A DNA stretch of 60,512 bases from positions 1 through 60,512 of IMG/VR virus record IMGVR_UViG_3300044953_000572. One strand, 5' to 3'. The position numbers and the translations under genes were made by a program. Under the pieces are notes generated by a model that saw nothing but the letters and a program-made list of their open reading frames with translations, was not told the DNA's origin and did not search any database. The DNA is from a virus (Duplodnaviria > Caudoviricetes). Within the stretch, counting starts at the first letter, position 1. Each line of letters opens with the position of its first letter. Of this stretch, positions 396 to 60,512 are shown one piece after another.

Positions 396-2876
396 TTACC
401 ACCCCATACCCATATCCATCCCTCTATCCTGGCTGTTGTGCATCGCTAATTCCTGCGCTATCCGCTGGCTGGTTTGATAGCCTATAGCGTCCCGTTCGAT
501 TGCTTTGTAAATCTCTTGCTCTTTGACTATTTTATTCAAACGAGTGTCGTTAAAAATCTCATGCGCAACGCTTTGAGCTTTTTTCTCTACTTCTTGCCAT
601 TGGGCCTTTTCAGCTGGATTATCACTTATAGAATATTGTTCTAAACGTTCCTTCCGTATGGAAATATCTACGTATTCTCTCAATTCGGGTATATTTTCCA
701 ACGCTAAGTATTTGGTTCTCTTGCGCGTCATACATTCAAGAAAGTCATTGTGGCTACGGAACTCTTGCTTGCTATAAAAAACTGTAGTTTCTTCTTTGTG
801 CCTAGTCATAGCTGGATAAATAGAATTGCTGTCACAATTCCTTGTGGCGTATAAAAAACTCGTACTTTCGTTTATTCCTTGAGATTTGGCGATTGTAGTA
901 GCGTAGCCGTGGTCGAAATTCTTATACACCTCAGTATCAAAAATAACTTCTCTCTTATCCTGGTCAAGCTCAACAGTCATTATTCTTCCATCAATACTCT
1001 TTACGAACCCTGCGCTGCCATTACTTACCCCTAGAACCCTATCATTCTGTAAGAACAAAATTCTATCGTTAACCGCAAAATTGTGCTTTCCTTCCTCAGC
1101 AATCATCTCATGTTCTTCAATGCTTAAGTGGTCAGAGGTTTTGTAAATCGTTTTAAATTCCTTGCCTTTACCAAGCTCGCCATTTTCTTTTAGTAGGTTC
1201 CTCGCTGTTTCATTCAATAACTGTGCGTCTTCCCTTGTGTAGGTCAGCATTATTCTAGTTTCATCAGGGTAATATTTGCGGTTTTCCTGCCATTTTTTAA
1301 TCATTGCATCTATAGCCATCTCTTTAGTTTCAAACGCCAGAATACATCCATGTTCGTCATAACGTCTTAACGCATCAGCAGTATCACCTCGACCAAACGC
1401 CTTGGTGGCTTCCTGCTGCCAAATTTGTGTTTGTCTGCGAATTTCACTCAAGTTCATTGTGGAAAACCGCTCGGATATTGCCCTAAACGGACTACCAGCC
1501 TCAATGGCTTGTAATTGCTCAGTATCTCCAATAAACACTACCTTAGCCTCTGCTTGTTCAACTTCTTTCAATATCCTAGCCACTTGTCTTGAGCCTAACA
1601 TCCCCGCTTCATCAATTACTAGCACAGTGTCCTTGGTAAGTTTTTCCTCTCCCTTGTCCCAATAACTCATACGACTAGCGAGCGTTCTACTTTCAATACC
1701 GCTGCTCGCTTGTAATCCTGATGCTGCGATACCCGACAGCGTAACGCCTTCAACTCGATAGCCCGACTGCTCCCATACGTCACGAGCAGCACCCAATAAA
1801 TAGCTTTTACCACTTCCTGCGTAACCGATAACGCATTTCATGTCGCCTGTGTCGATGAGATGGTTTAATACTTCTCGCTGCTCATCTGAAAGCGGTCTAG
1901 TTACTTTGACCTCTTTAACAGTATGACCTTTTCGCATATCAAGCTCATTTGCTTTAGTTAGCATTTCAATTTCTAAATCAAGCATACGCTTGCTGGTGAA
2001 GCTGGCGTTTTTTCCAAAAATTTCTACCAGCTCTTTGCTATCTCGAATGGCTTCGTAGACGTCAAAATATTGTGTTTCATGGACTGAGTGGCGCTTAGCG
2101 AAAGCATGGATATCTTTTTCTGAAAATGTCGATTGATTCCGAGTGAGCGCTTTAATCGCTATGGACGGGTCAGCTAGAATGCGCTCGGCATTGTCTCTGG
2201 CTATCCTTTCGTGCTCGGCTTTTCTTCGGTCATTGAACTTGTAGTTCTCATTTCCTCGTCTGACCTGCGGTTCTAAAGCGATACCCTGCTCGGCTAAGCT
2301 CAGATGCGTGATTCTTTCACGATGTCCGTTAAGAGATAGAGCCTCGTTAGCGTAGCTAGCCCATTCAGCCCGCCAGTCTTGTAACAAGTCTTTTGAGTTC
2401 CAGGTGCGGTTCTTTAAGCCGAACCCTTGCTCGGAGACTTCCCTTAGAGTAAGAAGCACATGAACATGGGATAGAGCAGAGCCATCAGAAGTATACTTGG
2501 TATGGATAGCTAAATCAGCAACCATACCCTTAGCGACAAACATTTCCTTAACAAATTTTTCCGCAAGCTCGATGTTCTGTTGGGTGGTTAGCTCTTTGGG
2601 CAAATCAAAGTTAACGTCTCGGCATAGTTGGGCATCGGTTCGCTTCTCAAATTGCTCAACGTAGTTCCATAAAGCTTGCCTGTCCTTCATCCAACTTGGA
2701 GCGGATTCAGGCAGCATGATTGTCTTGTGGGTTACGTCATCCTTGTGACGAAAGTCATACCGCTTGCCCGTTCTGAAATCGATTAACTTTTCACCTGAAC
2801 GATAGGCGGCAGCAGCAACGGAACTGCGTCCCGCTGAACGCTTAACGATGTCTACGCTAAAGTGATAATTTGCCAT
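396..2876 (-). CDS. traA: Ti-type conjugative relaxase-helicase TraA (MobA/MobL, MOBQ family)
   Basis: N-terminal MANYH...AAAAYRSG (catalytic Tyr), AIH...HVH HUH motif; C-terminal RecD-like helicase GYAGSGKS, DEAGM, GDTEQL, HGYATTIAKSQG. Confidence 0.95.
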   Translation of the reverse strand: MANYHFSVDIVKRSAGRSSVAAAAYRSGEKLIDFRTGKRYDFRHKDDVTHKTIMLPESAPSWMKDRQALWNYVEQFEKRTDAQLCRDVNFDLPKELTTQQNIELAEKFVKEMFVAKGMVADLAIHTKYTSDGSALSHVHVLLTLREVSEQGFGLKNRTWNSKDLLQDWRAEWASYANEALSLNGHRERITHLSLAEQGIALEPQVRRGNENYKFNDRRKAEHERIARDNAERILADPSIAIKALTRNQSTFSEKDIHAFAKRHSVHETQYFDVYEAIRDSKELVEIFGKNASFTSKRMLDLEIEMLTKANELDMRKGHTVKEVKVTRPLSDEQREVLNHLIDTGDMKCVIGYAGSGKSYLLGAARDVWEQSGYRVEGVTLSGIAASGLQASSGIESRTLASRMSYWDKGEEKLTKDTVLVIDEAGMLGSRQVARILKEVEQAEAKVVFIGDTEQLQAIEAGSPFRAISERFSTMNLSEIRRQTQIWQQEATKAFGRGDTADALRRYDEHGCILAFETKEMAIDAMIKKWQENRKYYPDETRIMLTYTREDAQLLNETARNLLKENGELGKGKEFKTIYKTSDHLSIEEHEMIAEEGKHNFAVNDRILFLQNDRVLGVSNGSAGFVKSIDGRIMTVELDQDKREVIFDTEVYKNFDHGYATTIAKSQGINESTSFLYATRNCDSNSIYPAMTRHKEETTVFYSKQEFRSHNDFLECMTRKRTKYLALENIPELREYVDISIRKERLEQYSISDNPAEKAQWQEVEKKAQSVAHEIFNDTRLNKIVKEQEIYKAIERDAIGYQTSQRIAQELAMHNSQDRGMDMGMGW

Positions 2877-3261
2877 TCATCTTTCCTGGAATTAGTCGTA
2901 CGGCTGGGAATGCCTGGTTGTGGACGGCTCTGTGAGGCGCATGGAAAAACTGATGGACAAAGCCATTGATAAACTGTTTCTTTGCTTCGCAAAACAAACC
3001 AGCTTCCCAACAGTTTGACCACGAGCTTTACCACGCTCCGACCACAACGTTTGACAACAATTAACACAATGCGTCCCCGCTTGAGAGGGGCGGGGACGGG
3101 CTGCACTAACTTTGAATTGCGCAAATTCTTATCTCCCTGAGCCAACGATTTGTTGTTGGCAGTTGGCAGGAGCCAACGTGCCAATCCGCGACAAGGTCGC
3201 TACCAGTCCTTCCATCATGTCGGTCAACAGGAGTTAGACCCACAACGATGAAAGGACAATT

Positions 3262-3289
3262 AACGCGCTTATACATTGCTTCGCAACGT
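3262..3289 (-). promoter_or_regulatory. Putative MOBQ-type origin of transfer (oriT/nic)
   Basis: Minus strand ACGTTGC-GAA-GCAATGT inverted repeat directly followed by ATAAGCGCG, resembling the IR + TAAGTGCGCCC core of MOBQ oriTs; upstream of traA. Confidence 0.7.
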
Positions 3290-3409
3290 GGCGCTTTCTT
3301 GAATGTCGATGTAATACAGGATGCGTGTCAACAGCTTGAATAAAAATTATTAAAGACGTGAATGTGAATATGGAATTTAAGAAAGAAGGAATGTGATCTA
3401 GGAAATTGA

Positions 3410-3700
3410 CTAATTATTATCTAAATGCCCAGAAGCATATCGATGCAAAACGCTAGCTATCATAGTTTGATATGGCATCCCTTCATGAGCAGCCTTTTGC
3501 TTTATAAGGTCTAAATCGGTTTCTGAAATTCTAATATTAATTCTTTGCTTTTTAAGCAGATAATTGTTAGCGGCTTTTTTAGCCTTGGCTTGCTCTGCTT
3601 TTAAATTTTTAATGCTTCTCCATTCTCCCCGGTCGATGGAATCTGATATCGCCTGTTCTTCTTTATTAAGACTGAATGTCACCTGCCGTTTGTTATTCAT
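3410..3700 (-). CDS. CopG/BrnA-type RHH antitoxin
   Basis: INIRISETDLDLIKQKAAHEGMPYQTMIASVLH motif; overlaps the upstream toxin gene. Confidence 0.85.
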   Translation of the reverse strand: MNNKRQVTFSLNKEEQAISDSIDRGEWRSIKNLKAEQAKAKKAANNYLLKKQRINIRISETDLDLIKQKAAHEGMPYQTMIASVLHRYASGHLDNN

Positions 3701-3992
3701 CTACTGTCTCCTTTTCTTTAAGATACTTCTTAGTAAACTTTCTGTTGGGGAAAATGGTTTTAAGAAATATTTTGTTTTCTGATTCGACAAATGGAACTAA
3801 GTAAATATAATTATTTAGCTCGATCACATAAATTTTTTGATGCCCATATTTGTTACTGTTTGGATGCTCTAACACATCTAATGGGCCTTGCTTATCTAAA
3901 GCAGCTATAACCATTTCAAAGCTGACATGCCTAGTTTTAATAAGTTCCGCATTCTTATCTGGGTCAAAGCTATAAATAGGGTTACGCCTCAT
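3693..3992 (-). CDS. brnT: BrnT-family toxin
   Basis: FDPDKNAELIKTRHVSFE N-terminus and FLKTIFPNRKFTKKY C-terminus; toxin-first order. Confidence 0.8.
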   Translation of the reverse strand: MRRNPIYSFDPDKNAELIKTRHVSFEMVIAALDKQGPLDVLEHPNSNKYGHQKIYVIELNNYIYLVPFVESENKIFLKTIFPNRKFTKKYLKEKETVDE

Positions 3993-4173: not shown

Positions 4174-6129
4174 CTAACCGCCTCGATTCTCATGCAACGG
4201 ATTGCCATCCCACAGCCCCTTCCATTCCTTGCGCTCCCAGTAATTAATCCTATGGCAGATAATAGGATATTCACCACGCTTGAATGCCAGCGCGACCCTG
4301 TCGCCCAATCGTTCAATTTCATCTGGCATTAATAATTGTCTACCAGTTTCGGAAGTCGAATTGCCGCTTTGTACGGACTCTCCACCGCCTTTGAATTGTT
4401 TTTGAACACCTTCACTTTGACTGACCGAGCTAACTTCGATTGTTTGCTTGCCTAGTTTTTTCGCGATGAACTCGCTAGTCATTACCTCAGCTGCTCCAAA
4501 AAATATTGATAGCTGGCTTGAGAAAAAAGCTTCCCAGGTATGCGGATAAGTGTTTCTTAAGTCTTGTATTGTTTGAGCGGCCATCAACAGACTGACTCCA
4601 AATCCTCGTCCGTAGGTTCGTATATTGTCGATTTGTTTTAGATAACCCAAGGCTGGCATCTCATCAATGAGCATCAAAAGGTTGTGCTTTCCGATATTGC
4701 CTTTAGCGCGCATAATTTCAATGAACGTAACACCAATTAAAAGCCTTAATAATTGTTTTTGGTCGTCCAACTTTTCAGGTGGAATGCAAACAAAAAGGTC
4801 AAAGTTACCTTTCACCATTTCGGATAGTTCAAAATCAGATTCACTGGTAGCTTCTTGTATGGCCTGAGCCGCTGCAAATCGCATGGCTAAAACTGCGCTA
4901 CTCAGGATGCCTGAACGCTCTCGATGTTCAATACCTAAAAACTGATTAGCCAGATTAGCGGCCTCACCACCCGCTGCTGAATAGTCTTCCCCAACTTCTT
5001 TTAATAGCTCTAATAGTTCACCTAAAGGCTTTGAGAGAATTTTATACACACTATATAGATTGCGGTTTTGTTTTGGGAAAGTTCCAACCACATGTAAAAT
5101 AACAGTCTTAATTAGACTTGCCGCGTGAGACTGGAAATGGAACGCGGCCGCTCCGTCTTTGATATTTGCTGGGCATATTAATTCTACTAAGATTTGGGCG
5201 TCATCGACTAATTCCTTGCTACTAGCGTCTAAAAACTGCAATGGATTGATTCTAATTTTAGGCGCACCGGCAATCCCAAATGGGTCAAATGCAATAACCT
5301 CACGCCCTTTGGACTCTCTAGCTCTCCTAGTTACAGTATAGTTCTCGCCTTTGATATCGGTAACAAATACCGCACCTGGGTAGCTTAAAAGCGTTGGCAT
5401 GATTACCCCAACATTTTTACCTGAACCACTAGGAGCAACCAATATGGCATGGTCGGCTTTAATTCTAATCAGCTCGTCTCCGCCTTTCTTTTGAATGCTG
5501 GCCACCAGTTTATGAGCATCTGTAAAATCCTTCTCTTTAGGCATCGCTCCAACAACTATCCCCTCAGAATCGTTTAGCCGTTTAATTCCTTTGGCGTCTA
5601 AAAACTTAGCCGTACCAAAGTTCGTAGATTTAGGCTTAGCGGATGAAAAAGCTGAATCAAATTTAATAAGCGCTCTATTACGAACCAAACACCAGAATGC
5701 GGAAATAATGAGCATTAGCTGAACGGCGTCTATAATGAATACGCTCCAAAAGCCGTCCATGTCCATAATTAAAGACCATTGCTTGTACAGCGAGAATAAG
5801 TCGACACCTCTCTTAGTCAACAAATTAAAATAATGACCGCTCCACAGTGGGGCTATCTTGTACAAATACCAGGAATTAACCAGCATGCTTGAAACGACGG
5901 CTAACCCTTTGTCTATCTCCAGCTTGAACAACAGCATTGAGCCGAGTATTGTTAATGCTGGTACCAGATGCAATGAAGCGTACTGGACTAAAATTGGCGC
6001 GTCATTGTGATGACCTAAAAGAAAATAGTTTTTCCAAAACCAAAAATAGAAGACAGGGAATGGCAATACGCCAATCCATATCCATTTAAAACGCCACAAT
6101 AAAAATAAAATACTTTTTAATCTTGGCAT
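4174..6129 (-). CDS. virD4: Type IV coupling protein VirD4/TraG
   Basis: N-terminal TM segments, FGTAKF, Walker A APSGSGKN, TDIKGE, Walker B LIDEMPALG. Confidence 0.95.
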   Translation of the reverse strand: MPRLKSILFLLWRFKWIWIGVLPFPVFYFWFWKNYFLLGHHNDAPILVQYASLHLVPALTILGSMLLFKLEIDKGLAVVSSMLVNSWYLYKIAPLWSGHYFNLLTKRGVDLFSLYKQWSLIMDMDGFWSVFIIDAVQLMLIISAFWCLVRNRALIKFDSAFSSAKPKSTNFGTAKFLDAKGIKRLNDSEGIVVGAMPKEKDFTDAHKLVASIQKKGGDELIRIKADHAILVAPSGSGKNVGVIMPTLLSYPGAVFVTDIKGENYTVTRRARESKGREVIAFDPFGIAGAPKIRINPLQFLDASSKELVDDAQILVELICPANIKDGAAAFHFQSHAASLIKTVILHVVGTFPKQNRNLYSVYKILSKPLGELLELLKEVGEDYSAAGGEAANLANQFLGIEHRERSGILSSAVLAMRFAAAQAIQEATSESDFELSEMVKGNFDLFVCIPPEKLDDQKQLLRLLIGVTFIEIMRAKGNIGKHNLLMLIDEMPALGYLKQIDNIRTYGRGFGVSLLMAAQTIQDLRNTYPHTWEAFFSSQLSIFFGAAEVMTSEFIAKKLGKQTIEVSSVSQSEGVQKQFKGGGESVQSGNSTSETGRQLLMPDEIERLGDRVALAFKRGEYPIICHRINYWERKEWKGLWDGNPLHENRGG

Positions 6130-7082
6130 ATAAGGTCTCGTTTTCCAGTTTTAGGGTAATAAATTTCAGTAACCCGCCTCTTGCCGTTAAAATCCCTATG
6201 CAATTGCACAATCGCGTCCAATAGCCCATTTAAAAGCTGCTCTAGCTCAGATTTAGGAATATCCGTACCCGACATTAGGATGTTTTGCCGAATCGCGTCA
6301 ATAAGGGATTTAGGCGAATCGGCGTGAGCGGTGCATAAAAATCCCGCATGACCCGAGTTCAGCATCCGTAAAATTGGTAAAGCATTAGCCATGGATAGCT
6401 CACCGCACACAATCATATCTGGCCTGCTACGCATTAAATGGTCAATCATTTGCGGATATCCAATGGTAGGGTTACTTTCATTACGGCTTACCAAGTAATT
6501 AGATTTGTCATAGTGCTCAATGTTTAGTTCGTAGGTATCTTCTACGGAAAGGATGCGTCTATCTTTAGGAACATACTTTAGCAAGCAATTTAGAAAGGTT
6601 GTCTTACCGCTTGAAGTCCCGCCAGAAATAATAACGTTAGCGCCTTTCTCAATCATCGAAATCAGATTGTCTTTTTTCTCGTCCTTAAGTCCAAAGTCCT
6701 CAAGCGTTAGAGTGATTTCTCTTTTCAGCCGAATCGACACGGAAATCTTTTGTTTAACGGCATCGCCTACCATCGCCTCAAACCGATGCCCGCCTGGTAG
6801 TTCTACCGACACTCTAGGCTGTTTCTCAGGATGAAAGAAAGAGCCGTTGCCGTTAGCTAAGATGTAGCATAGATTAAGCCAATATCTAAAATCCAAATGC
6901 TTGGCATTAACGAACTTGACGCCTTCCGTAGCGGATTCTAGCCTTAGCTCTCCAGGTTTGTTAACGTTCACTTCCACTAAATTGCGAATAGTTAAATATT
7001 CAAATAGTGGCTTTAAGAACGCCAACAGCACTGGCCTGTCCTTTAATTGTTCTTCCAACTGTTGAATCAGTATTGTACCCAT
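6117..7082 (-). CDS. virB11: VirB11 traffic ATPase
   Basis: SGGTSSGKTT, VEDTYEL, RSRPDMIVCGE, NSGHAG...TAHA. Confidence 0.95.
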   Translation of the reverse strand: MGTILIQQLEEQLKDRPVLLAFLKPLFEYLTIRNLVEVNVNKPGELRLESATEGVKFVNAKHLDFRYWLNLCYILANGNGSFFHPEKQPRVSVELPGGHRFEAMVGDAVKQKISVSIRLKREITLTLEDFGLKDEKKDNLISMIEKGANVIISGGTSSGKTTFLNCLLKYVPKDRRILSVEDTYELNIEHYDKSNYLVSRNESNPTIGYPQMIDHLMRSRPDMIVCGELSMANALPILRMLNSGHAGFLCTAHADSPKSLIDAIRQNILMSGTDIPKSELEQLLNGLLDAIVQLHRDFNGKRRVTEIYYPKTGKRDLICQD

Positions 7083-9046
7083 GCGTCATACTCCGAATGT
7101 CCATCAGGATAACGAGTGGCGTTCCTGTAGTAATTGATAAAGTCTATTGTTTGGTACTCGATTGATTTAGTACACAAATTAGCCGAAGCAATAGGATTTC
7201 CTTCGCTCACTAACTTTTCATAAGTGGAACCATCTCCACGTTTGTAAGCGTTATACAGTTGCGTTCTAGTAATCTTATAGCAACCTTGATAGTGAAAGTT
7301 TTCCGTGGGCTTGGTCTGGTCAGCCAATTGCTCGTAAGCGACATTTTCGCCCGCTTTTTCCTTAATGGCGACCTTATTATCCTCGTCATCCACGTATACC
7401 GACAAAATAGGCTTAGAGATTAAATTTTTATCATCATTCGACCATTCCTTAATCTCGGTTTGATGGTCTAGATATTCCGCCGTCTTTTGGCATTCGCTCA
7501 CGTAATGCTTTTGGCCTTCATTCTCATAATAATATTGCGCCAGAGAATAACTTTTTCCATTCTCGAAATCATGCACGTACTGACCAGCGCAAGGCGTTCT
7601 GTCTTGTAGGAGCGCTATATTACTGGGTCTACACTCCCTCACCTCAATCGTTTTGTTGCCTTTTTTAATTACTAATCGAGCTTGTACGTGCCTGTTTCCA
7701 TTTATTTTTAGTTGAGAGCAACCATCGGCGGTTTCACTGACTTTGAATTTCTCCGACTTATCGGAAACACCACAACCAACTACAGGCAGAAATATCCCAA
7801 ATTTATTTAAATATCCTAGCCTAGAGGTTTTAATGGCGTATCCTTCCTCTGTCTCGATATCGAATGGACAGCCTCGTGACTCCTCGAAAATATTAAACGG
7901 GTGACCTTCATCTACTTTAATCCCTAAGTTATGTCGCTCGCCGTTTTTATCGAACCAATGCTCTTGATATCTAGCGAAAGCTTTCTTTGTACCTATATCC
8001 ACTTCATCAATACAATCATCACACAAATAATCTCGCTTAACGGGATAAGTTTCCAGCGTCTTCTCGCATACTCCTTCATCAACCACTTTCCCATTTTCTA
8101 TTTTCTTAGCTCTAGCAGTAATGATGACTCGCTCTTGCAATACGTCATGCTCTGGGTTACAGCCGTCTTCGGTAAGCTCTACATTAATATTAGGGCTATC
8201 AGTCTTCTTAGAATCATCATTTTTAGCAGAGCTGTCTTTTAAATTTATGTCCATATCCCCTTTAGATTTTCTCACTGAACCATCAGCCCCTTGAAATCCT
8301 GGCAGGTTAGCAGGGTTGTGCCCATCAGCGTTTAAATTTAGTTGCCCACTATCAGCACTAGCTTGCACGTCAGTTTTAGATTTCCTGGAATTATTAGAAT
8401 CATTAGGCAAGCCGTTTTCATCTAACCCCATTTCAGAAGCTTCTCCAGGCTCAATAGTGGCCGAACTCTTAACGTTATTGGCAACATTAACTCGTCTAGT
8501 CCCACCGTTATTTACCAACCAAGACGCATGTTCATCAGGTTTTCCATAAACCGCTTTAAACTTTCTTTTTCTTTTTAAATCCTCTAAATCTATCTTATCT
8601 TGCTCTAAATCATTAATTGCTCGAATTAAATCTTGTTCATCACCAAACGTTGGTAGCGGGATATTTTTAATATCCACACCATCTTTAAACATGAAAGAAG
8701 ACACGATAGGCTCTTTAAATCCCACCACTTTATCGGGAGAATCCATTCTTTGTACACCCAACCATTGAATATTAGCGATGTTGTAGCCCTTAAGCGATTT
8801 ATCCTTGCAAGGACTAACATAAACCTTTCCCTGTAATCGCATTTTGTCGGATTTGTTCTTATCTATATCTTTTAAAGAGCCATAAATTTTATAGACGTTC
8901 ATTTTATTCTCTATTTTTAAGTCTTCTTCAATAATTGCGCCGTGTTTAAGTTTGGGCGTTGTTTCTTCTTCTGAAACTTTTTGTTTTCCAGCAAATACGG
9001 ACATAGACAAACTTAAACATAAAACGCTAATCGCTAACTTTTTCAT
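7067..9046 (-). CDS. Secreted Cys-rich protein within T4SS operon (possibly TraN-like mating-pair stabiliser)
   Basis: Likely ATG at 9046 with GAGG RBS; signal peptide MKKLAISVLCLSLSMSVFA; low-complexity linker, then many spaced Cys. Confidence 0.5.
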   Translation of the reverse strand: MKKLAISVLCLSLSMSVFAGKQKVSEEETTPKLKHGAIIEEDLKIENKMNVYKIYGSLKDIDKNKSDKMRLQGKVYVSPCKDKSLKGYNIANIQWLGVQRMDSPDKVVGFKEPIVSSFMFKDGVDIKNIPLPTFGDEQDLIRAINDLEQDKIDLEDLKRKRKFKAVYGKPDEHASWLVNNGGTRRVNVANNVKSSATIEPGEASEMGLDENGLPNDSNNSRKSKTDVQASADSGQLNLNADGHNPANLPGFQGADGSVRKSKGDMDINLKDSSAKNDDSKKTDSPNINVELTEDGCNPEHDVLQERVIITARAKKIENGKVVDEGVCEKTLETYPVKRDYLCDDCIDEVDIGTKKAFARYQEHWFDKNGERHNLGIKVDEGHPFNIFEESRGCPFDIETEEGYAIKTSRLGYLNKFGIFLPVVGCGVSDKSEKFKVSETADGCSQLKINGNRHVQARLVIKKGNKTIEVRECRPSNIALLQDRTPCAGQYVHDFENGKSYSLAQYYYENEGQKHYVSECQKTAEYLDHQTEIKEWSNDDKNLISKPILSVYVDDEDNKVAIKEKAGENVAYEQLADQTKPTENFHYQGCYKITRTQLYNAYKRGDGSTYEKLVSEGNPIASANLCTKSIEYQTIDFINYYRNATRYPDGHSEYDAWVQY

Positions 9047-10013
9047 GCTGCGCCTCTTTCTTTGATTGAATAGGAATGGGTTCTTTAAAAACGATGTCAA
9101 CTCTCGGCCGGATTTGTAGTCTAGTGCCAGCCTTAATATAAATAACTGGTTTTAAACTGATATTCTTTTGAATAACATCTGCTGTCACTTGACCGATATT
9201 GTTTGAAAAGGTGGTCTGAGCATTCCCTCGCCAAGCAGGCGCATTGGGATTTACGCCACTTTGCGCTAAAGCGGATATGCCTGACATGATAAAAGCGCCC
9301 GCGTAAGTTTCAAACGTTCGGTTATCCACTTCACCCGTTAAACCCGTACGTCCCATCTGGTCAGCGACAATCGCATCCGTCAGTGAAACGCTGACTCCGT
9401 CTGGCCTAATCGCTCTGGTACAAGTCATGGGTAATCGGGTCTGTCCGTGCTGTTCAATGCCTTTATATTCACAAACAATCTTCGTGAACACCGGTAGCAA
9501 AATAAATTTATTATTTGGACTAAATACTGGCTTATCCACTATTGCTATCGCAACGCCTGGAATTTGAGAATTGATATCGTCATCCAACACAGCATTAATA
9601 CGCATATCTGTAGTAAGCGTTCTTGAGCGGTCAACTGGTAGTGTGGATAAATCTTGCGGAAGAGGGGAGTAATCTTTATCAGTGAGCTGGTATGTAACTG
9701 ATTCATTAGGTTTTTTACTATTTTCAAACAAAGCAACGTGCGCAGCCTTGCGCTCATCTCGCAATTGTGCCGAAATTTTAGATAGTACTATATCTTGGTT
9801 TTTCTTCTCGGCTTGCTGGCTCTCTTCCTCAGCTGGCACTTCTACTTCAATAATTTTAGGCTGTTCTACAACTTTCGGTTTCTCTTTATAACCAATCTCA
9901 GCGGGAAATGATATAGGCTCACGTTTAACGGGTTCTTTGGTCTCCGACTTATCCTCGCAACCCGTCAATAACAGTAATAACGATAATAATGGTAATAACG
10001 TTATCCTGGCCAT
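9027..10013 (-). CDS. virB10: VirB10/TrbI core complex protein with N-terminal lipobox
   Basis: INAVLDDDINSQIPG, DQMGRTGLTGEVDN, KPVIYIKAGTRL; N-terminus LLLLTGC. Confidence 0.9.
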   Translation of the reverse strand: MARITLLPLLSLLLLLTGCEDKSETKEPVKREPISFPAEIGYKEKPKVVEQPKIIEVEVPAEEESQQAEKKNQDIVLSKISAQLRDERKAAHVALFENSKKPNESVTYQLTDKDYSPLPQDLSTLPVDRSRTLTTDMRINAVLDDDINSQIPGVAIAIVDKPVFSPNNKFILLPVFTKIVCEYKGIEQHGQTRLPMTCTRAIRPDGVSVSLTDAIVADQMGRTGLTGEVDNRTFETYAGAFIMSGISALAQSGVNPNAPAWRGNAQTTFSNNIGQVTADVIQKNISLKPVIYIKAGTRLQIRPRVDIVFKEPIPIQSKKEAQHEKVSD

Positions 10014-10189
10014 TTTCCATCTCGTATTCTTAAAGTAATTAACATGCTCGCGTTAGCGATAAGCACCCAGGTAATAATTTCTAATATCCAAAAGAACACG
10101 TCTGGCAAATTAAAAGCATTTTGGACTTTAAAAATAATCAACAATAAAAACAGTTGAATAACCACCACATCAGCGGAACTCTTAATCAC
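10001..10189 (-). CDS. Small two-TM membrane protein
   Basis: Hydrophobic 62 aa ORF overlapping both neighbours in the operon. Confidence 0.55.
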   Translation of the reverse strand: MIKSSADVVVIQLFLLLIIFKVQNAFNLPDVFFWILEIITWVLIANASMLITLRIRDGKWPG

Positions 10190-11076
10190 GCGCGCCTCAC
10201 TCTGGTTTTAGTTGGATATACGCAAGTTATCTTATCACCACTTTTCAAAACGAAAGAACCAGCTCCATGCGCCACTAATCTATTACCATCCAATGTGACA
10301 TTAATAGCCTTTTGATAACCATCCACCACGCTAAAGAACGTTGGCAAATTACGCTCGTCTAAATTATCCCCATAATCAAACCAAGTTCTTACGCCATCGG
10401 AATACACTAAATCAGGGGCTATTTGCTCATCCCCAGACATTGAGAATTTAAAATCTAGTTTAGAAGAATCAAAATAAGCTTCCTCTAAATAGTCCTCTTT
10501 TTCTTGTTCTACTTTATGGGATTGTTTTGTTTGTTTTGATTGTGCTTGCTTAGCGTATGCGTACACGGGTTCTGGTACTTGCATACGAACTGTGATGTCA
10601 CTAATATTCTTGGAGTTGTGGCCTTCCACACGAACGTAAAAGCCATAAACATGCCCGCTCTCGCCAATTACAGTTATGCTGGTGTCTATCCCCACGTAAT
10701 TAGTCGGTCTAATCGTTAAAATATTGTCTTTAATCGTTCTGGTCTCGTAATTCCCCTCATCTCCAATAATCACTTCCTCGATTCGCTCCCATTGCGGAAA
10801 GACAATCGTAGTAGTCATATACTCACGCACAACTAATCTAACCGTATCCCTAGGGTCAAAGTTAACGATTCTTACGCCAGAGCCATACTCAGCGTGTTCC
10901 CAGGCTTTTTGCATAGACGCTAAAGGCACTGATGATTCACGCTGTAAAGCGGGATAATCGCCTTCAGCTTGCTGTGATACTTCCTTATGTGCGAGCGAGT
11001 CATCCACAGGCTGGTCAGCCATAGCGGAAACGCTTAAGCAGATAATCAACACTAAGCTTAAAATCTTTTTAATCAT
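10186..11076 (-). CDS. virB9: VirB9/TrbG core complex protein
   Basis: Signal peptide; TTIVFPQWERI, IAPDLVYSDGVRTWFDY, LPTFF. Confidence 0.9.
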   Translation of the reverse strand: MIKKILSLVLIICLSVSAMADQPVDDSLAHKEVSQQAEGDYPALQRESSVPLASMQKAWEHAEYGSGVRIVNFDPRDTVRLVVREYMTTTIVFPQWERIEEVIIGDEGNYETRTIKDNILTIRPTNYVGIDTSITVIGESGHVYGFYVRVEGHNSKNISDITVRMQVPEPVYAYAKQAQSKQTKQSHKVEQEKEDYLEEAYFDSSKLDFKFSMSGDEQIAPDLVYSDGVRTWFDYGDNLDERNLPTFFSVVDGYQKAINVTLDGNRLVAHGAGSFVLKSGDKITCVYPTKTRVRRA

Positions 11077-11725
11077 GCAATACCCTCATCTTATATTGAA
11101 TAACTGTAAACCCAATTGGGTTAATATCGTCCTCGCCAGCAAATAACTTACGCTCTCTCGCTTCCGCCGTAATTACCGAAACGCAGTTGATGAATCGCTG
11201 AGAGCCGTCCTTCTCAGTCTCAGCCAACATCCAGTTCACTTGCCACATGCTAGGGGCTGTTGGCGCAAGGCTAATCACCTGCTTAACGCTGACCGAACGA
11301 GTGACGTTATTTTCTTTTAATTTCTTAGCGTCCGAGTTTTGGTTCTCAACGTTTAAAAAGTTCTCCAAGTACTCAATTACGCTAGGGTCGTCGACCATCG
11401 TATATAACCGCTTTAATCTCACCGCTTCCGTCTGTCCATCGAAAGTATGCAAATCTACGATAAATTCACGGCATTTAATCTCAATAAGCTTTTTCATGCT
11501 CTCAGTATTAACCTCTAAAGGTTCCACCTTTACCACTTGAGAATCTTTGTTGTAAGCGCTTACCAAGAATGGCTTTAGCTCTTTTAACGGCATGAGATAA
11601 AGAAAAGCGGTGCACATTATTAGAAAAGCGCAGCTCATGATTAAAAACCCAAGCCCCAACATCCTAGACGCGAACCAAGAGGAGTAAAAAGGTTTGTTTA
11701 GGCGATCAATCTCGTTTTTATCCAT
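11069..11725 (-). CDS. virB8: VirB8 family protein
   Basis: Single TM followed by LMPLKELKPFLV; C-terminal NPIGFTVIQY. Confidence 0.85.
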   Translation of the reverse strand: MDKNEIDRLNKPFYSSWFASRMLGLGFLIMSCAFLIMCTAFLYLMPLKELKPFLVSAYNKDSQVVKVEPLEVNTESMKKLIEIKCREFIVDLHTFDGQTEAVRLKRLYTMVDDPSVIEYLENFLNVENQNSDAKKLKENNVTRSVSVKQVISLAPTAPSMWQVNWMLAETEKDGSQRFINCVSVITAEARERKLFAGEDDINPIGFTVIQYKMRVLHD

Positions 11726-11939
11726 TTGCAACCTTATAAATAATATAGAAATGACAACTTAATAGAAATAACGTGAATAGAATCCATTTTTTAATCTTTG
11801 CATTGCTCAAGACTTTTAATAACGCCGAAAAAAGACTTTGCTCTATTTCTAAAAGATGCTTACCAATATAAAATAACAAACAACAAAGATTTAAAGATAA
11901 AGCCAAAGCAAACGCCTTTATGAAAGCAGTCTCGCTCAT
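11718..11939 (-). CDS. Small membrane protein
   Basis: ATG at 11939 in a TAATG overlap; two hydrophobic segments. Confidence 0.5.
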   Translation of the reverse strand: MSETAFIKAFALALSLNLCCLLFYIGKHLLEIEQSLFSALLKVLSNAKIKKWILFTLFLLSCHFYIIYKVANG

Positions 11940-12088
11940 TAAACCCTCTTCCCATTCACATAAAACGGCGCTTTCTTGCACACCTCACACGGACTTTTCA
12001 CCAGCTCATCACCAGGCTTTTTAAATACCTTGGCACAACCTGTTAAAGAAGCGAACATCAAGAAAGTTAAACAAATTTTCACGCACAT
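11939..12088 (-). CDS. Small lipoprotein, VirB7-like or entry-exclusion candidate (internal start in ORF 11939-12304)
   Basis: AAGGTG RBS then MCVKICLTFLMFASLTGC lipobox, 49 aa, SPC motif, between virB6 and virB8. Confidence 0.55.
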   Translation of the reverse strand: MCVKICLTFLMFASLTGCAKVFKKPGDELVKSPCEVCKKAPFYVNGKRV

Positions 12089-12306
12089 ATTTTTCACCTT
12101 ATCTTTATAGACCTTTCTGGCGAACCTAAAGCAACCACGCATTGAATAGAAAAAAGCAAGCGAGCACGCCCACATAAAATAACAAAGCTCATAAACAATC
12201 GTGGCTAGACCAATCACAAAACCAAGTATAAAATGAGCCACCCTCAATATCAGGCATACGGCAAAAACGTCAAAAGCAATTCTAAAATAGTCAATTGATT
12301 CCATAA

Positions 12307-13314
12307 CTAATCCCCTCTAAATTTAGATAAGAAGCTACTTACCACCTTTGAAGTCGCTTTATATGCGGAAGACCCAGTCAGCTTCGCCACGTTCGCAAAC
12401 AGATTGCCACTTTTTTTCATGGTGAGACCAGCAAGACCCGCTATAGAAGCACCAGCGAGGCCAGAAATGAGTGAACTGCTTTGAGAGCCTGAAATGGCAA
12501 ACGCCATTTCTTGAGCAACCATTAAATAATAGATTGAAACCGCAGCGACTATAGATAACCCGCTAAATGCTTTAAAAACGTCAGCCTCGGTAATAGTGGC
12601 TACGTTCATGCTCGCTTCAAACTGGCACAATGAAAACATAATAAGCGACAAACAAAACGAGGAGATAACGATGGTTAGCGATGCGCCTAAAACGTTTCTT
12701 AATGCGCCAACCGCGTAACCTCTGGTCTGCTCAAAGGCAAAACAGACCATTAACAAAGGGGATAAAGCCCATAATACCGACAGCCTCAGCAAATAAGTTG
12801 AAACATGAAACGCGTATATCCCTTCACAAGCGATAAACGCCAGATATACGACAAAACCAAAAATCCCAGCTTCAACAAAAGCGGCAAATCCCGCTTTTTG
12901 TTTAATTTCCAAAGACATCTCTAAAAATCTACTACATTTATCCTCTATTTTGTCTAAAGCATCTTTAGAATTTGCTATACCACTAGAACCCTTATTGCCA
13001 ATAGATAATATTTTACAAACTATGGTGTCGGTGGTTTTTTTAATTGGCACACAAATAAAATTTTTAAAAACACCGCTACCCGTACTTATCATAAAACCCA
13101 CGACGGTAAAAAAAACCATCTTCTTCCCAAGTTCTATAAAATCAATATCGCCCTTAACCAATCCATCATAAATCTTATACGCAACCCAAATACTTACGAA
13201 GCAGCCAAAGATGGTCGAGGAAAAGCCACTTAAACTTCTCGCCCCAGTTTCCGCAAACTGCTCAATGACTTTTTCTATAGGATCTATTAAGAGCTTTCTT
13301 AAACTAATAATCAT
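12307..13314 (-). CDS. virB6: VirB6/TrbL polytopic membrane protein
   Basis: Multiple TMs, LSPLLMVCFAFEQTR motif, position after virB5. Confidence 0.85.
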   Translation of the reverse strand: MIISLRKLLIDPIEKVIEQFAETGARSLSGFSSTIFGCFVSIWVAYKIYDGLVKGDIDFIELGKKMVFFTVVGFMISTGSGVFKNFICVPIKKTTDTIVCKILSIGNKGSSGIANSKDALDKIEDKCSRFLEMSLEIKQKAGFAAFVEAGIFGFVVYLAFIACEGIYAFHVSTYLLRLSVLWALSPLLMVCFAFEQTRGYAVGALRNVLGASLTIVISSFCLSLIMFSLCQFEASMNVATITEADVFKAFSGLSIVAAVSIYYLMVAQEMAFAISGSQSSSLISGLAGASIAGLAGLTMKKSGNLFANVAKLTGSSAYKATSKVVSSFLSKFRGD

Positions 13315-14051
13315 TTAAAACCCCTGGCTTTTGATGGGTCGTTTATCCTTGAGGTTCCCTCAAAGCGGGCGAAAAATGATGACAACAACTCTAGCTGCTG
13401 TGCTTGCAACTCTCTTAGCTGAATCAATTCCGCCACGGCGATACTTAAGAGTTCGTTATGGGATTTCATGGCATCCGCCGAACTGGAAGCGGTTACCGCC
13501 TTAGTTGTTGCATCGCTTAGTTTCTTCTTCGCCCCAACGATATTCGCCTTGCTTTCGTTTGATACGACCACACTCGTAGCCATGGAATTACGAACCAACT
13601 CTTGTCGCCTATACTGCATTTGCGCTGGGTTTTTATCGTCCTCGAACATTTGGGTTTTCACGTCATCTAACGCTTTCTTTGAGTTAAATGAAGAGACGTA
13701 ACCGAAAGTATCAGAAGCGTAGTTCTCAGGGTGTAGCTTATCTACACCCAACCATTTAAACGCTGAAAAATGGTCTGGGTCGAGATCATCAATCTTGTCA
13801 TAATACGTTTGCCAATTGAGAAGCGAGTTAGTTAGACTTTGTTTGTCTTCTTTAAAAGAGCCCATAATGGCTTTAGCTTGGGAAAGTTCGTTATGAACCC
13901 GCTTTGTTTCTTCTATATGCTTCTTTGTTTCTTGCAGCATCTTGACTAACTCGGCATAACTTACGGGGTCGTGCACTGGTTGTCCACCACAAAAACCAAT
14001 GCTTGGAGTTAGTGCTATTGTTATAGTTAAAACTTTAATTATTCGTCTCAT
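13311..14051 (-). CDS. virB5: VirB5/TrbJ-like minor pilin
   Basis: Signal peptide followed by GGQPVHDP motif and a helical Gln-rich body. Confidence 0.7.
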   Translation of the reverse strand: MRRIIKVLTITIALTPSIGFCGGQPVHDPVSYAELVKMLQETKKHIEETKRVHNELSQAKAIMGSFKEDKQSLTNSLLNWQTYYDKIDDLDPDHFSAFKWLGVDKLHPENYASDTFGYVSSFNSKKALDDVKTQMFEDDKNPAQMQYRRQELVRNSMATSVVVSNESKANIVGAKKKLSDATTKAVTASSSADAMKSHNELLSIAVAELIQLRELQAQQLELLSSFFARFEGTSRINDPSKARGFK

Positions 14052-17174: not shown

Positions 17175-17475
17175 ATACGTTGTCCTTAGTCTTAAATATG
17201 TTTTTAGTTTTGCGACATCTCAGCCTAGCCATAATTACGTTAATGAAATACGGGTCTTTATAAGTCTTAAAAGCCATCCATGCTTGGACTGGAAAAAACA
17301 CGAACACGCAAATCAAAAAATAAACTATCGCATCAGGGTCAAACGCTAGATAAGCGAATAGGGTAGCTAAAAGCCAAACCGCTATCGATATCATCGTGCC
17401 TTGGTATGAAGCACACAAGAAAACGGGTGGCGAACACACGTTAGCAAGCACGAATGATTTTGATTTATCGCTCAT
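17164..17475 (-). CDS. virB3: VirB3-like protein
   Basis: Two TMs, KDPYF motif, between pilin and virB4. Confidence 0.75.
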   Translation of the reverse strand: MSDKSKSFVLANVCSPPVFLCASYQGTMISIAVWLLATLFAYLAFDPDAIVYFLICVFVFFPVQAWMAFKTYKDPYFINVIMARLRCRKTKNIFKTKDNVYGS

Positions 17476-17843: not shown

Positions 17844-17852
17844 ACTTACACC

Positions 17853-18089: not shown

Positions 18090-18098
18090 AAAAAATCC

Positions 18099-20345: not shown

Positions 20346-20426
20346 TTTCTGAACTCCCCTTGTGAGTTTGGTTGTGGTTAGTGGTACCTGAGGTCGTTAC
20401 ACCTCTTGTACCACGGTATATTTATA

Positions 20427-40862: not shown

Positions 40863-40864
40863 GA

Positions 40865-41278: not shown

Positions 41279-41292
41279 TTGGAGTGGTGGAC

Positions 41293-42779: not shown

Positions 42780-42864
42780 GAAAAAATTAAAAAGATTTTG
42801 TTTACTAATGAATCCGAACGTTGAATAATAAAAATATCGATGCTGTGGATGTAAAACATAGCGA

Positions 42865-43006: not shown

Positions 43007-43045
43007 TTAACAAAATTAATCCATTTATTTTTTGGAGACAGTTCA

Positions 43046-43669: not shown

Positions 43670-43684
43670 TAGGAGAAATAGAAA

Positions 43685-47073: not shown

Positions 47074-47393
47074 TGGGTAACATAAAACAAGGATTGGGCA
47101 AAAAAGTTAGAGACAAAAAGAGCGGTGGTATTTCTTTTTGTGACAGAACGGACATGGCCTACAACTATGGGGATTTAGTTAAAGAGTATGAGTGGCGTGG
47201 CAATTCGTTGGTTTGGAACGGCCTAATGGTAGGAAAAGACGTAGTGGATGAGCCAAACGAGAGCGGAAGGCCGTTTAAATACAAAAAAGAAGGTCTATTG
47301 CCGCCAAACACTCGACCTGAACAACAAGAAGTTCCGGCGATGTCTAACCAAGAAACTTTAGAAGTTCTTAAAAATACGGTGTGGCAGTCATGA
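47073..47393 (+). CDS. Phage protein
   Basis: FCDRT...LVKEYEW...WNGLMV...DEPN pattern. Confidence 0.6.
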   Translation: MGNIKQGLGKKVRDKKSGGISFCDRTDMAYNYGDLVKEYEWRGNSLVWNGLMVGKDVVDEPNESGRPFKYKKEGLLPPNTRPEQQEVPAMSNQETLEVLKNTVWQS

Positions 47394-57950: not shown

Positions 57951-59125
57951 AACTAAACTTTGATTTCTCGCCTTGGATATCGCCTGTGACGGGGCACATG
58001 TTATTTCCACCTTTCCCATTGGAAAAAGATTATATTTGGGTAGGTGATAGAGACAATATTGCGCAACCTTCTCCAGCTTTAATTGACGTTAGATTAGATA
58101 TTGTTGATGTCAGGCATAGGATAGATGCTTTAAAAAAGCCAACCTATATTTTACAAACCCCAACCCCGTTATTTCCGAATGCCCAAGCTCTGAGTGATTT
58201 AGCTCCTGGTGGGCTATTAAAAAGTAATCAAGATGGAGTTATTAGTATTGCTTATCTCAATCAAGGTCAAGTATTTGTAGGAGACGCTAATAACCAACCG
58301 CAATCCGTTCAAACGATTTCCATTGATAATCTTCCCAACCTAACGTTCAAGAGAATTTGGCGAGGTAATATCTTAAGCCGTCCTTCCGAGTCAGATGATC
58401 TAACGGTACTTGAGACTACGGTAGAAGAAATCCAAACACAAATTAGCGAGTTAGAGTTAGAAATCACTGAGCTTCAAACGGCTGTTACTGAATTACAAAA
58501 CTGGCAAATTGCCGCAGAAGCACAAATTGAAGAAATGTTGCTTGAGATTGGGACGCTACAAACTGAAGTAGCTGCTCTGCAATCAGAAGTGGCCGCTATC
58601 CAAGCTGAGTTGGTTGTAATTAATGGTGAAATATTAGCCCTTCAAACAGAATTAGCGGCTTTAGGGGTAACTGTGGCTGAATTAGGGGCTGCTGTTGCAG
58701 GTTTAAGCGCAACGGTTACCGCTTTAGGATTTACTGTGGCGGGACTCGGTATTACTGTTGCATCTCACTCGTTCCAAATATCTAGCCTGCAATCATCAGT
58801 AAGCTCATTACAGCAACAAATCGATAATCTCTCGTTAGATAAATTGCCTTGTTATGGGGATGTATCCTTATCAGGACATAAACTTACTAACGTTGGCGAC
58901 CCAATATTGCCTACCGACGGCGCTAACAAACAATACGTAGATGGAAAGCTTATTACAGTCGTTGGAGCAGTCACGGGTATTGGCACGCTTGGTACTGCGG
59001 TAGCGACTGTATTCTCGCCAGACCCAGTGTTTACCGGAAAATCAATGGCAATGCCATCTGGTGATAGCTCACAAAGGCCTGCGACATTAATTCCAGGCAT
59101 GATTAGATTTAATACTTCACTTTAA
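57947..59125 (+). CDS. Coiled-coil tail fibre/needle protein
   Basis: About 20 heptads, DGANKQYVD fibre motif, C-terminal QRP...GMIRFNTSL. Confidence 0.7.
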   Translation: MKLNFDFSPWISPVTGHMLFPPFPLEKDYIWVGDRDNIAQPSPALIDVRLDIVDVRHRIDALKKPTYILQTPTPLFPNAQALSDLAPGGLLKSNQDGVISIAYLNQGQVFVGDANNQPQSVQTISIDNLPNLTFKRIWRGNILSRPSESDDLTVLETTVEEIQTQISELELEITELQTAVTELQNWQIAAEAQIEEMLLEIGTLQTEVAALQSEVAAIQAELVVINGEILALQTELAALGVTVAELGAAVAGLSATVTALGFTVAGLGITVASHSFQISSLQSSVSSLQQQIDNLSLDKLPCYGDVSLSGHKLTNVGDPILPTDGANKQYVDGKLITVVGAVTGIGTLGTAVATVFSPDPVFTGKSMAMPSGDSSQRPATLIPGMIRFNTSL

Positions 59126-59142
59126 CGATAGGAGAACTTGAA

Positions 59143-59868
59143 ATGGCCGCAAATTTGAAAGATGAAAAAGACGTTAACGGAAAACTACAAGCACCTCAAC
59201 CTTCATCGGTGGGGAAGCCTGAAGTTTCAGATGGTACGAGTTGGTTTACATTAGCGACTGAAAATTGGGTTTTAAACACCCTAGCCAATATCCCCGCTTG
59301 TTTGGTTGCGACTACAGCTAACTTGACAGCAAATTATGTCAATGGTGCTTCTGGGGTAGGGGCGACTCTAACAAACTCAGGAACTTTAGCGGCATTATCA
59401 ATTGATGGTGTTGCTTTAGCGGTAGGACAAAGAGTGTTGGTAAAAGACCAAACAACTGCCTTGCAAAATGGCATTTATACCGTAACCAACATCGGCTCAG
59501 GTAGCGTTGCCTGGATTTTAACACGGGCTACCGATTTTGATTCCGTATCACAAATGATTAGGGGTAATGTCGTTGAAGTCATTAGTGGTACAACAAACGG
59601 CGTTACAGCTTGGATGTTGACTTCTGTGATAACTACTGTGGGTACAGATTCAATTACTTTTGCTAGATTATCAAAAAGTGGTATTGACTCAGTGTTAGGA
59701 ACTACAAATCAAATCGTAGTGAACATTAGCAATAACGTTGCAACCGTCAGTATTGCTAGTAATCCTGTGTTGCCTGGAAATGCTTCTGTAACGATTCCTA
59801 CGGGAAGTACAGCGCAAAGACCTGGGTCGCCGACTGCTGGAATGTTAAGGTTTAACACCAGCTTATAA
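59143..59868 (+). CDS. Tail fibre-like protein
   Basis: IDGVALAVGQRVLVKDQTTALQNGIY, LTRATDFD, C-terminal QRP...GMLRFNTSL. Confidence 0.8.
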   Translation: MAANLKDEKDVNGKLQAPQPSSVGKPEVSDGTSWFTLATENWVLNTLANIPACLVATTANLTANYVNGASGVGATLTNSGTLAALSIDGVALAVGQRVLVKDQTTALQNGIYTVTNIGSGSVAWILTRATDFDSVSQMIRGNVVEVISGTTNGVTAWMLTSVITTVGTDSITFARLSKSGIDSVLGTTNQIVVNISNNVATVSIASNPVLPGNASVTIPTGSTAQRPGSPTAGMLRFNTSL

Positions 59869-59887
59869 ACTGCAAACGGATTAAATA

Positions 59888-60512
59888 GTGAAACTTGAGT
59901 TTTACGACGGTTCCAGTTGGGATAGTGTTGCTACTGAAAGTTTTGTTAATACTAAAGTATTTGATATTAACTCCAATACAAGTGGCAGCCTGAATGTCAA
60001 TCGCTTGCAAGGTTATCCGGGTTCAACAAACGCCTTTCTAAGGGGAGATGGTGCCTGGACATTACCTTACATTAATAATTTGTTAATCAATGGTAATGTA
60101 TCTTTAGCTAATTTTGGTCTATCGAATGTTTCAAGTTTAGGTGTAGGAAGTTTCACTCTATCAACTAATATCATGCAATCTAGCAGTAGTATTCTGCTTT
60201 CCGCTCCAACCGCAGGTTCTGGTATCACCTTTGCCTCAGATTCAGGCATAGCCTTAATTGCTAGCGGTAGTTCTTCACCTGGACAGGTTCGTATGGGAAA
60301 TGGTTCTGGGAATTATGTTGGTTTACAAGCCCCATCTTCTATCCCAAACACTATTACATGGGTTTTACCAAATGTAGACGGCTCTGCTGGATACCCATTA
60401 AAAACAGATGGGACGAAGAATTTAAGTTTTGGAACGATTGATATTAATTCAGCTACTTCGGGAAGTTTAAATATTTCAAGGTTAAGCGGCTACCCTGCAA
60501 ATAGTTCCGTAT
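59888..60512 (+). CDS. Tail fibre-like protein, 3' truncated (missed by ORF track)
   Basis: GTG at 59888: VKLEFYDGSSWDSVATESFV...AFLRGDGAW...; open to window end. Confidence 0.75.
   Translation, partial: MKLEFYDGSSWDSVATESFVNTKVFDINSNTSGSLNVNRLQGYPGSTNAFLRGDGAWTLPYINNLLINGNVSLANFGLSNVSSLGVGSFTLSTNIMQSSSSILLSAPTAGSGITFASDSGIALIASGSSSPGQVRMGNGSGNYVGLQAPSSIPNTITWVLPNVDGSAGYPLKTDGTKNLSFGTIDINSATSGSLNISRLSGYPANSSV

Follow-up and report, generated by a model that had tools for sequence, protein, structure and literature searches.

A Candidate Conjugative Phage-Plasmid of a Podovirus Lineage in a 60.5-kb Viral Record

The IMG/VR virus record IMGVR_UViG_3300044953_000572 is one contig of 60,512 bases, analyzed here over its whole length (the window), and it combines a VirB/D4-type conjugation system with the packaging, head, and tail genes of a podovirus-like phage. 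We favor, at slightly better than even confidence, the reading that the window represents most of a single extrachromosomal replicon: a phage-plasmid from a podovirus lineage, in which a complete conjugation system occupies the position that cargo has in its relatives. Such an element may spread by two routes, as a virion and by mating, and its gene content makes dual transmission plausible; we infer that the replicon is circular, that it is packaged whole, and that both routes function. The runs holding the element are labeled lake water metagenome, and the host is probably a protist-associated intracellular proteobacterium.

The window is organized in three blocks, comprising a conjugation arm on the minus strand (0.4–17.8 kb), a plasmid backbone (17.8–25.4 kb), and a phage arm on the plus strand (25.4–60.5 kb), with a coding fraction of 0.95 in both arms. 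Gene calls rest on Pfam, NCBIfam, PHROG, and PDB chain matches, with Atlas neighbors used as leads only (table 1). The original prediction, made from the nucleotide sequence, described an apparently intact conjugative phage-plasmid, and its central point was upheld in that both gene sets are uninterrupted and probably lie on one molecule resembling a plasmid replicon.

Conjugation System

The relaxase TraA scores above the NCBIfam equivalog cut-offs (TraA_Ti, 729 vs. 590 bits; MobQ, 252 vs. 200 bits), and a VirB4-family ATPase, the VirD4 coupling protein, VirB6, VirB8, VirB9, VirB10, and VirB11 pass family cut-offs on the same element, confirming this part of the predicted type IV secretion system (T4SS). 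The fuller listing of virB2 to virB11 stood for these core genes; VirB2, VirB3, and VirB5 match only below cut-off, and virB7 is proposed from its position and a lipobox, with no Pfam or NCBIfam family match. Judging from its genes, the conjugation system is probably genetically complete and a predicted self-transmissible VirB/D4 system of mating-pair-formation type T (MPF-T). Also embedded in the arm are a BrnT/BrnA-like pair, a 677-amino-acid (aa) protein without a Pfam or NCBIfam match, and an outer-membrane protein (OMP) of the beta-barrel type.

The predicted oriT-like site was also recovered, as a 26-nt core 388 nt upstream of traA. It matches the core conserved upstream of traA in all three plasmids compared (from Aquicella, Sphingobium, and Legionella sp.), occurs once in the window, and had no match in any of 100 shuffles. 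We regard it as a candidate oriT for the MOBQ/Ti-type TraA, at which nicking is putative. An 8-nt nick motif was rejected, as its two matches in the window are no better than chance (equaled in 43 of 100 shuffles).

Phage Module and Its Relatives

TerL, portal, major capsid protein, adaptor, nozzle, ejection, and fiber-like genes named in the original prediction were all identified, with PHROG scans returning the TerL, portal, ejection, replication, and fiber families; the scaffold and TerS genes were placed by position. The predicted podovirus-like character agrees with the SU10-type adaptor and the nozzle, and it holds because the PHROG scans found no tube, sheath, or tape-measure family.

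Two IMG/VR records (L002 and L003) share 80–85% DNA identity with 35.3–50.7 kb of the window, and two others (L004 and L005) share 77–84% with 25.9–32.4 kb. The ratio of nonsynonymous to synonymous substitution rates (dN/dS) against these four is 0.02–0.25 in the 31 of 32 gene comparisons that were usable, the remaining one having a saturated dS. Window genes in these comparisons align over their full length, and the one stop codon encountered is in a relative. Strong purifying selection acts on the phage genes.

More distant relatives reside on circular plasmids of 57–64 kb in protist endosymbionts. A PLSDB search for the portal returned three records, all circular plasmids of this kind: pBealeia1 of Candidatus Bealeia (NZ_CP133271.1) and two of Ca. 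Megaera polyxenophila (CP113869.1 and AP017967.1). Searching genome contigs with a portal alignment gave nine matches, including Ca. Megaera venefica, Ca. Bandiella numerosa, and a 62.7-kb contig of a Rickettsiales metagenome-assembled genome (MAG). These endosymbiont relatives have 13–15 late proteins in common with the window at 24–43% identity, the endosymbiont plasmids keep the same head-gene order (40859–44584), and the fiber-like proteins are 68–73% identical to Ca. Megaera plasmid genes. Single-protein searches of IMG/VR with the primase, VirB4, the relaxase, the 709-aa protein, and Rep found no relatives, nor did a primase search in genome contigs.

The four near-complete family members searched in IMG/VR (96–100% complete) measure 56.8–66.4 kb. 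With at least 60.5 kb, the window falls in this range, so that packaging of the whole replicon is conceivable. More tentatively, and at clearly less than even confidence, we propose a size-constrained dual-route element: the same 61–66 kb DNA would travel in podovirus capsids and also pass through the T4SS that it encodes, conjugation genes having replaced cargo without exceeding head capacity, in hosts living inside protists, where mating and free virions would reach different recipients.

Linkage of the Two Arms

Both gene sets are probably on one molecule. Logan re-assembled contigs of four runs (X1–X4), placed on 16501–36500 in 30 bins, cover every bin in X1, X2, and X3 and 24 bins in X4, where the gap is read as low depth and not as absence; the comparison draws on these four runs, X5–X10 having only small shares. 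Mean contig depth to the left and right of 25.17 kb is ∼10.8 and 10.7 in X1, 168 and 178 in X2, 2.7 and 2.8 in X3 (repeat bin omitted), and 0.9 and 1.2 in X4, each being a per-contig mean and hence a coarse measure. The two sides of the module junction thus match in depth in each of the four runs, from ∼1× to ∼170×, and no shared segment is doubled. A backbone common to two replicons would show doubled depth, which is not the case here. In X1, one contig (record 1; 14,223 nt) follows the window with 0 differences from ∼10.8 kb, inside the T4SS, to 25024, and another (record 6; 21,289 nt) runs from 31414 to beyond 36500.

The re-assemblies break between the modules at one place only, a 7-nt tandem repeat close to 25.0 kb, at which contigs from each of the four runs have an end (25000–25024). 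This raises the possibility of an assembly chimera in which a T4SS plasmid and a phage were joined at the repeat or through a segment common to both. Extra depth and foreign loose ends are seen at the repeat node, and joints with short sides and loose ends occur elsewhere (e.g., 24370 to 31972, side 21), which we read as short patches shared with other related elements in the same samples. Such a chimera is nevertheless very improbable. It is opposed by the equal depth in four runs spanning about two orders of magnitude, and by L004, a contig of 12.2 kb that comes from a different metagenome, matches 23922–24229 and 25943–32402 and therefore holds homologs of both sides of the break; upstream of these matches L004 has a different ParA module. 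Tetranucleotide signatures of the T4SS and structural arms also agree (r = 0.91); the structural arm correlates at 0.89 with its close relative L003, and both arms at 0.35–0.45 with the Rickettsiales relatives.

The backbone is not uniform across the population, as minor variants are present in X2, the deepest run. One swaps 189 nt in a small acidic gene (18187–18377; depth 34 of ∼170), and the other skips 1,006 nt covering ParA (22861–23868; depth 11 of ∼160).

Plasmid Backbone and Lifestyle

Several features fit a plasmid lifestyle, including the presence of ParA, a weakly matched Rep-like gene, the lack of an integrase match, and portal relatives that are circular plasmids. The Rep–ParA–ParG block of the original prediction was upheld for ParA by Pfam; the Rep-like protein is a weak match whose Atlas neighbors (HTH_36, RepA_N, and RP-C) are leads, and the ParG-like gene, assigned by position, encodes a 72-aa product without a family match.

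These features bear on the idea that the window is a piece of chromosome with an integrative conjugative element (ICE) and a prophage in tandem. Both contig ends are open, the flanks lie outside the record, and phage–ICE tandems have been described in Streptococcus (PMC13651849). We consider this arrangement improbable. As originally predicted, there is no integrase match among the open reading frames (ORFs) of at least 125 aa that were scanned, smaller unscanned ORFs being too short for one, and no housekeeping gene lies in the window. No recombinase, tRNA, or att-like long direct repeat was found in the 60.5 kb, ParA and a Rep-like gene lie in the stretch that separates the two modules, and the phage-module relatives are circular plasmids.

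On the preferred phage-plasmid reading, the Rep-like initiator, ParA, and the BrnT/BrnA-like pair would maintain the plasmid in the carrier state. During mating, TraA would nick the oriT core, and VirD4 with VirB2–VirB11 would then move one strand into a neighboring cell. Upon induction, the Sak4–primase–helicase block would replicate the DNA, after which TerL, portal, capsid, adaptor–nozzle tail, and ejection proteins would package and deliver it.

Evidence against Two Working Routes

A number of observations count against an element that uses both routes. The description of the element as intact did not hold: the contig has no terminal overlap, a circular closure was not found, ORFs are truncated at both ends, IMG/VR classes the record as linear, CheckV estimates 46% completeness, and no endolysin, holin, repressor, or anti-repressor was recognized in any scanned ORF. 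Genes for lysis and lysogeny control may be of a new type or may be located outside the contig. On the conjugation side, there are the low scores of VirB2, VirB3, and VirB5, and no VirB1 was found in the window. The linkage data have their own weak points besides the coarse depth measure, as X1 and X2 are possibly the source samples, leaving only X3 and X4 as independent, and these two, although from two other studies, possibly belong to one campaign and consist of short contigs that bridge nothing.

Also adverse is the distribution of the T4SS. None of four related plasmids has a VirB4 protein match, the Rickettsiales MAG contig G001:C62 matches no window T4SS protein, and the VirB4 family PF03135 is absent from all five long IMG/VR records, four of them 96–100% complete. 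The T4SS, relaxase, Rep, and ParA proteins of the window matched none of 79 IMG/VR loci (738,582 bases). Five genomes yielded two VirB4 matches, both on other contigs and at 24–27% identity, and in a phage collection four records match VirB4, none covering 80% of the protein. A second T4SS-bearing relative was not found in the collections searched.

The endosymbiont plasmids themselves look decayed, with insertion sequence (IS) elements and group II introns in the Megaera plasmids and TerL in three pieces in pBealeia1, so plasmid residence is no proof of a live phage. This, together with the unrecognized lysis and control genes and the CheckV estimate, speaks for one replicon with one working route, a conjugative plasmid keeping a phage-derived module (defective, recently stranded by size, or domesticated) without infectious plasmid-carrying particles; published cases tie the gain of conjugation functions to phage-gene loss (PMC10879196). 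On the other side, the virion genes of the window align at full length to L002 and L003 without stops, dN/dS is 0.03–0.16 for packaging and structural genes, IS elements and introns are absent, the late region has a coding fraction of 0.96, and the total size is within that of the family. A single working route is unlikely in our judgment, and we continue to give it serious weight because the ends are missing, lysis and control genes are unrecognized, and the related plasmids have decayed.

Other Features

The two Sak4-like genes are paralogs with 40% identity, inverted and flanking the Rep/ProQ/ParA block, and L004 has a single Sak4-like copy. The inverted pair might be the trace of an ancient fusion or recombination event by which the T4SS arm was acquired. 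A stand-alone receiver domain (24475–24918) between partition and phage early genes may feed into the decision whether the element stays in the carrier state, mates, or turns to lysis.

The replication block of the phage arm (25942–31750) is 84% identical to L004 at the nucleotide level. It is followed by a 309-nt gap containing an iteron-like array (31928–32175) of four direct copies of an 8–11-nt unit (period 11 by Tandem Repeats Finder, TRF). Perfect inverted copies occur at a distance of 200 nt, and the array is a candidate for an operator cluster or a lytic origin. Between the portal and GroES-like genes, a 151-aa ORF (40123–40578) without a family match looks like a small inserted gene, missing in L002 and L003, whose alignments skip from 40118 to 40585.

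A patatin-like phospholipase gene, preceded by an OMP beta-barrel gene, lies in the late region adjoining the fiber genes. Homologs with 35% identity occur beside fiber genes in a Ca. Megaera plasmid (L008, 1465–2553) and a Rickettsiales MAG contig (L028, 653–1714). Because no classical endolysin was found, the patatin may be considered a candidate virion-associated or exit enzyme. The two OMP genes of the window were considered as paralogs, which was ruled out (E 4.5).

At the contig start, the low complexity of a truncated ORF (2–340, minus strand) may explain why the assembly stopped. An Rfam scan of the window was empty, as were megablast searches of 1–25000 against plasmids and of 35513–60512 against phages.

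Table 1. Features Annotated in the 60,512-nt Window, in Order of Position
Feature	Coordinates	Strand	Evidence or remark
Lys/Ala-rich, histone-H1-like ORF	2-340	-	Cut at contig start
TraA (Ti-type) MOBQ relaxase with SF1 helicase domain	396-2876	-	Pfam MobA_MobL 2.9e-65, AAA_30 1e-55
oriT-like core, 26 nt	3264-3289	+	388 nt upstream of traA, inverted relative to traA
BrnA/CopG-like antitoxin	3410-3700	-	Pfam CopG_antitoxin 30.4 bits (cut-off 28)
BrnT-like toxin	3693-3992	-	BrnT 21.4 bits, below 34.5 cut-off
VirD4 coupling protein	4174-6129	-	Pfam T4SS-DNA_transf 1.2e-76 (258.9 bits), TraG-D_C
VirB11 ATPase	6117-7082	-	Pfam T2SSE 9.4e-25, above cut-off
677-aa protein in T4SS operon, function unassigned	7067-9100	-	Atlas best score 0.84, lead only
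VirB10	9027-10013	-	Pfam TrbI 2.2e-38, above cut-off
VirB9	10186-11076	-	Pfam CagX 4.9e-27, above cut-off
VirB8	11069-11731	-	Pfam VirB8 2.5e-15, above cut-off
VirB7 candidate, small lipoprotein at C-terminal end of ORF	11939-12304	-	Position between virB8 and virB6, lipobox in translation
VirB6	12307-13314	-	Pfam TrbL 3.3e-13, above cut-off
VirB5/TrbJ-like protein	13311-14051	-	TrbJ_Ti weak match, E 5e-6, 26 bits (cut-off 100)
Outer-membrane beta-barrel protein in T4SS operon	14061-14753	-	Pfam OMP_b-brl, Surface_Ag_2, Opacity
VirB4	14772-17174	-	Pfam P-loop_TraG 41.1 bits, CagE_TrbE_VirB 27.1 bits, both above cut-off; PF03135 above cut-off
VirB3	17164-17475	-	Pfam 21.7 bits, below 23.9 cut-off
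VirB2 pilin candidate	17475-17843	-	Pfam TrbC 17.7 bits, below 27.9 cut-off
Sak4-like AAA_24 ATPase	19081-20121	-	Pfam AAA_24 6.3e-24, phrog_124
Rep-like winged-helix initiator candidate	20977-22194	+	phrog_428, phrog_8102 "replication initiation protein," E 1e-6 to 9e-6
ProQ/FinO-family RNA-binding protein	22191-22742	+	Pfam ProQ 2.8e-14
ParA	22999-23655	+	Pfam AAA_31, CbiA, VirC1; above cut-off
Small ParA partner, 72 aa, ParG-like	23652-23870	+	Position
Stand-alone response-regulator receiver domain	24475-24918	-	Pfam Response_reg 3.7e-12
7-nt tandem repeat, 6.4 copies	24995-25038		TRF; only inter-module break in re-assemblies
Sak4	25942-26619	+	phrog_124
Primase	27660-30092	+	phrog_2249
Helicase	30089-31750	+	phrog_16
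HNH endonuclease	33935-34309	+	PHROG match (phrog_374, phrog_824, phrog_5702 jointly with next gene)
Resolvase/endonuclease-like protein	34384-34761	+	PHROG match (phrog_374, phrog_824, phrog_5702 jointly with HNH gene)
TerS candidate, 162 aa	35445-35933	+	Position, no family match
TerL	35920-37518	+	phrog_38 2.4e-77
Portal	37832-40117	+	phrog_1216 1.1e-15; 89–90% aa identity in L002 and L003
GroES-like protein	40859-41278	+	phrog_3188 (PHROG match of the head morphogenesis block)
334-aa and 168-aa proteins	between GroES-like gene and scaffold candidate	+	Head morphogenesis block
Scaffold candidate	42941-43669	+	Position
Major capsid protein	43685-44584	+	Pfam Phage_capsid_4 42.1 bits (cut-off 27)
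Discoidin/adaptor-like protein	46018-47073	+	
Adaptor	47381-48016	+	Pfam SU10_adaptor (PF24175) 89.6 bits, above cut-off
Nozzle	48013-49533	+	PDB nozzle chains 8zkm/8zkk, E 3e-12
DNA ejection protein, 283 aa	50187-51038	+	phrog_4287 "DNA ejection protein"
Further ejection/internal proteins (365, 709, 452 aa)	up to 55601	+	Position and homologs in relatives
OMP beta-barrel	56030-56713	+	Pfam OMP_b-brl
Patatin-like phospholipase	56928-57950	+	Pfam Patatin 2.2e-24
Fiber-like proteins	57947-60511	+	PHROG tail-fiber and decoration families; last ORF (59888-60511) truncated by contig end

Comparison with Known Systems

Conjugation and viral transfer are presented in reviews as alternatives open to plasmids, opposed in their costs, host ranges, and size limits (PMC12282955), and T4SS domains are described as sporadic in phage-plasmids (among PMC12282955, PMC7969092, bioRxiv 10.64898/2025.12.20.690322, bioRxiv 10.1101/2025.11.07.687105, PMC10879196, PMC10123127, bioRxiv 10.1101/2025.03.14.643293, PMC5751055, PMC11909080). 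Rare conjugative phage-plasmids are already published, as large Escherichia coli cointegrates. Conjugation elements are given for 6 of 222 E. coli phage-plasmids, of ∼175 kb, for which the authors suspect cointegration or assembly artifacts (PMC10123127, Ares-Arroyo et al.), and p1002-1 is described as a fusion under the name “conjugative phage-plasmid” (bioRxiv 10.1101/2025.03.14.643293). These cases overtake the novelty implied by the original prediction, although its background, that well-known phage-plasmids lack a full conjugation apparatus and that conjugative derivatives typically lose virion genes, is largely correct. Among P1-like phage-plasmids, those that gained mob/oriT are reported to have lost phage genes (PMC10879196, Pfeifer and Rocha 2024).

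Like the window, the E. coli examples join a phage-plasmid and conjugation genes on one replicon. They are about double the usual ∼90 kb, whereas the window element, of at least 60.5 kb, is in the size range of its family, carries a single Rep-like/ParA set, and comes from a podovirus lineage unrelated to theirs. The P1-derived mobilizable plasmids likewise come from a phage-plasmid lineage that acquired conjugation-related functions; as described (PMC10879196), they lost phage genes and gained only mob/oriT, in contrast to the uninterrupted virion genes and whole mating apparatus found here.

With the endosymbiont plasmids (pBealeia1, CP113869.1, and AP017967.1) and the Rickettsiales MAG contig G001:C62 the window shares late proteins, head-gene order, a patatin gene beside the fibers, and fiber-like proteins, and ParA is matched in CP113869.1, CP113870.1, and G001:C62 though not in the examined part of pBealeia1. 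The window differs from them in having VirB4 and in lacking the decay seen in several. The 57.5-kb Holosporales plasmid pBealeia1 (L006; 2344–4635 and 30825–44877) additionally carries six RebB R-body genes besides its portal-to-nozzle module and fragmented TerL, in keeping with the long-standing association of R-bodies with phage-like elements (PMC11909080); its RebB proteins have no match in the window.

The conjugation genes point to other plasmids. The nearest VirB4 homologs belong to vir-type T4SS plasmids of Ca. Paracaedimonas acanthamoebae (41–42% identity), and the nearest TraA homologs to Ti-type TraA plasmids of Aquicella, Legionella, and sphingomonads (41–48%), with which the oriT core is shared. 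None of these plasmids is among the TerL matches listed (25 of 100 records) or the three portal matches, and, unlike in the TraA plasmids compared, the oriT core of the window is inverted relative to traA. Among free podophages, Roseobacter phages CRP-901/902 and pelagiphages HTVC023P/027P have TerL proteins 28–35% identical to that of the window, and the tail resembles the SU10 type in its adaptor family and in a nozzle similar to solved nozzle proteins. The window differs from free podophages in its plasmid and conjugation genes, which were not found in the family members sampled, and in having no DNA polymerase match.

We found no report of a compact phage-plasmid combining intact virion genes with its own T4SS, nor of a compact phage-plasmid with its own T4SS in endosymbiont lineages, in the literature without supplementary tables. 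If the phage-plasmid reading is true, a compact element with both gene sets intact would allow direct tests of whether one replicon can use both routes, of how it chooses between them, and of whether capsid capacity is a limit on the cargo of a conjugative plasmid. It would also represent an extra route of gene exchange among uncultured protist-associated bacteria.

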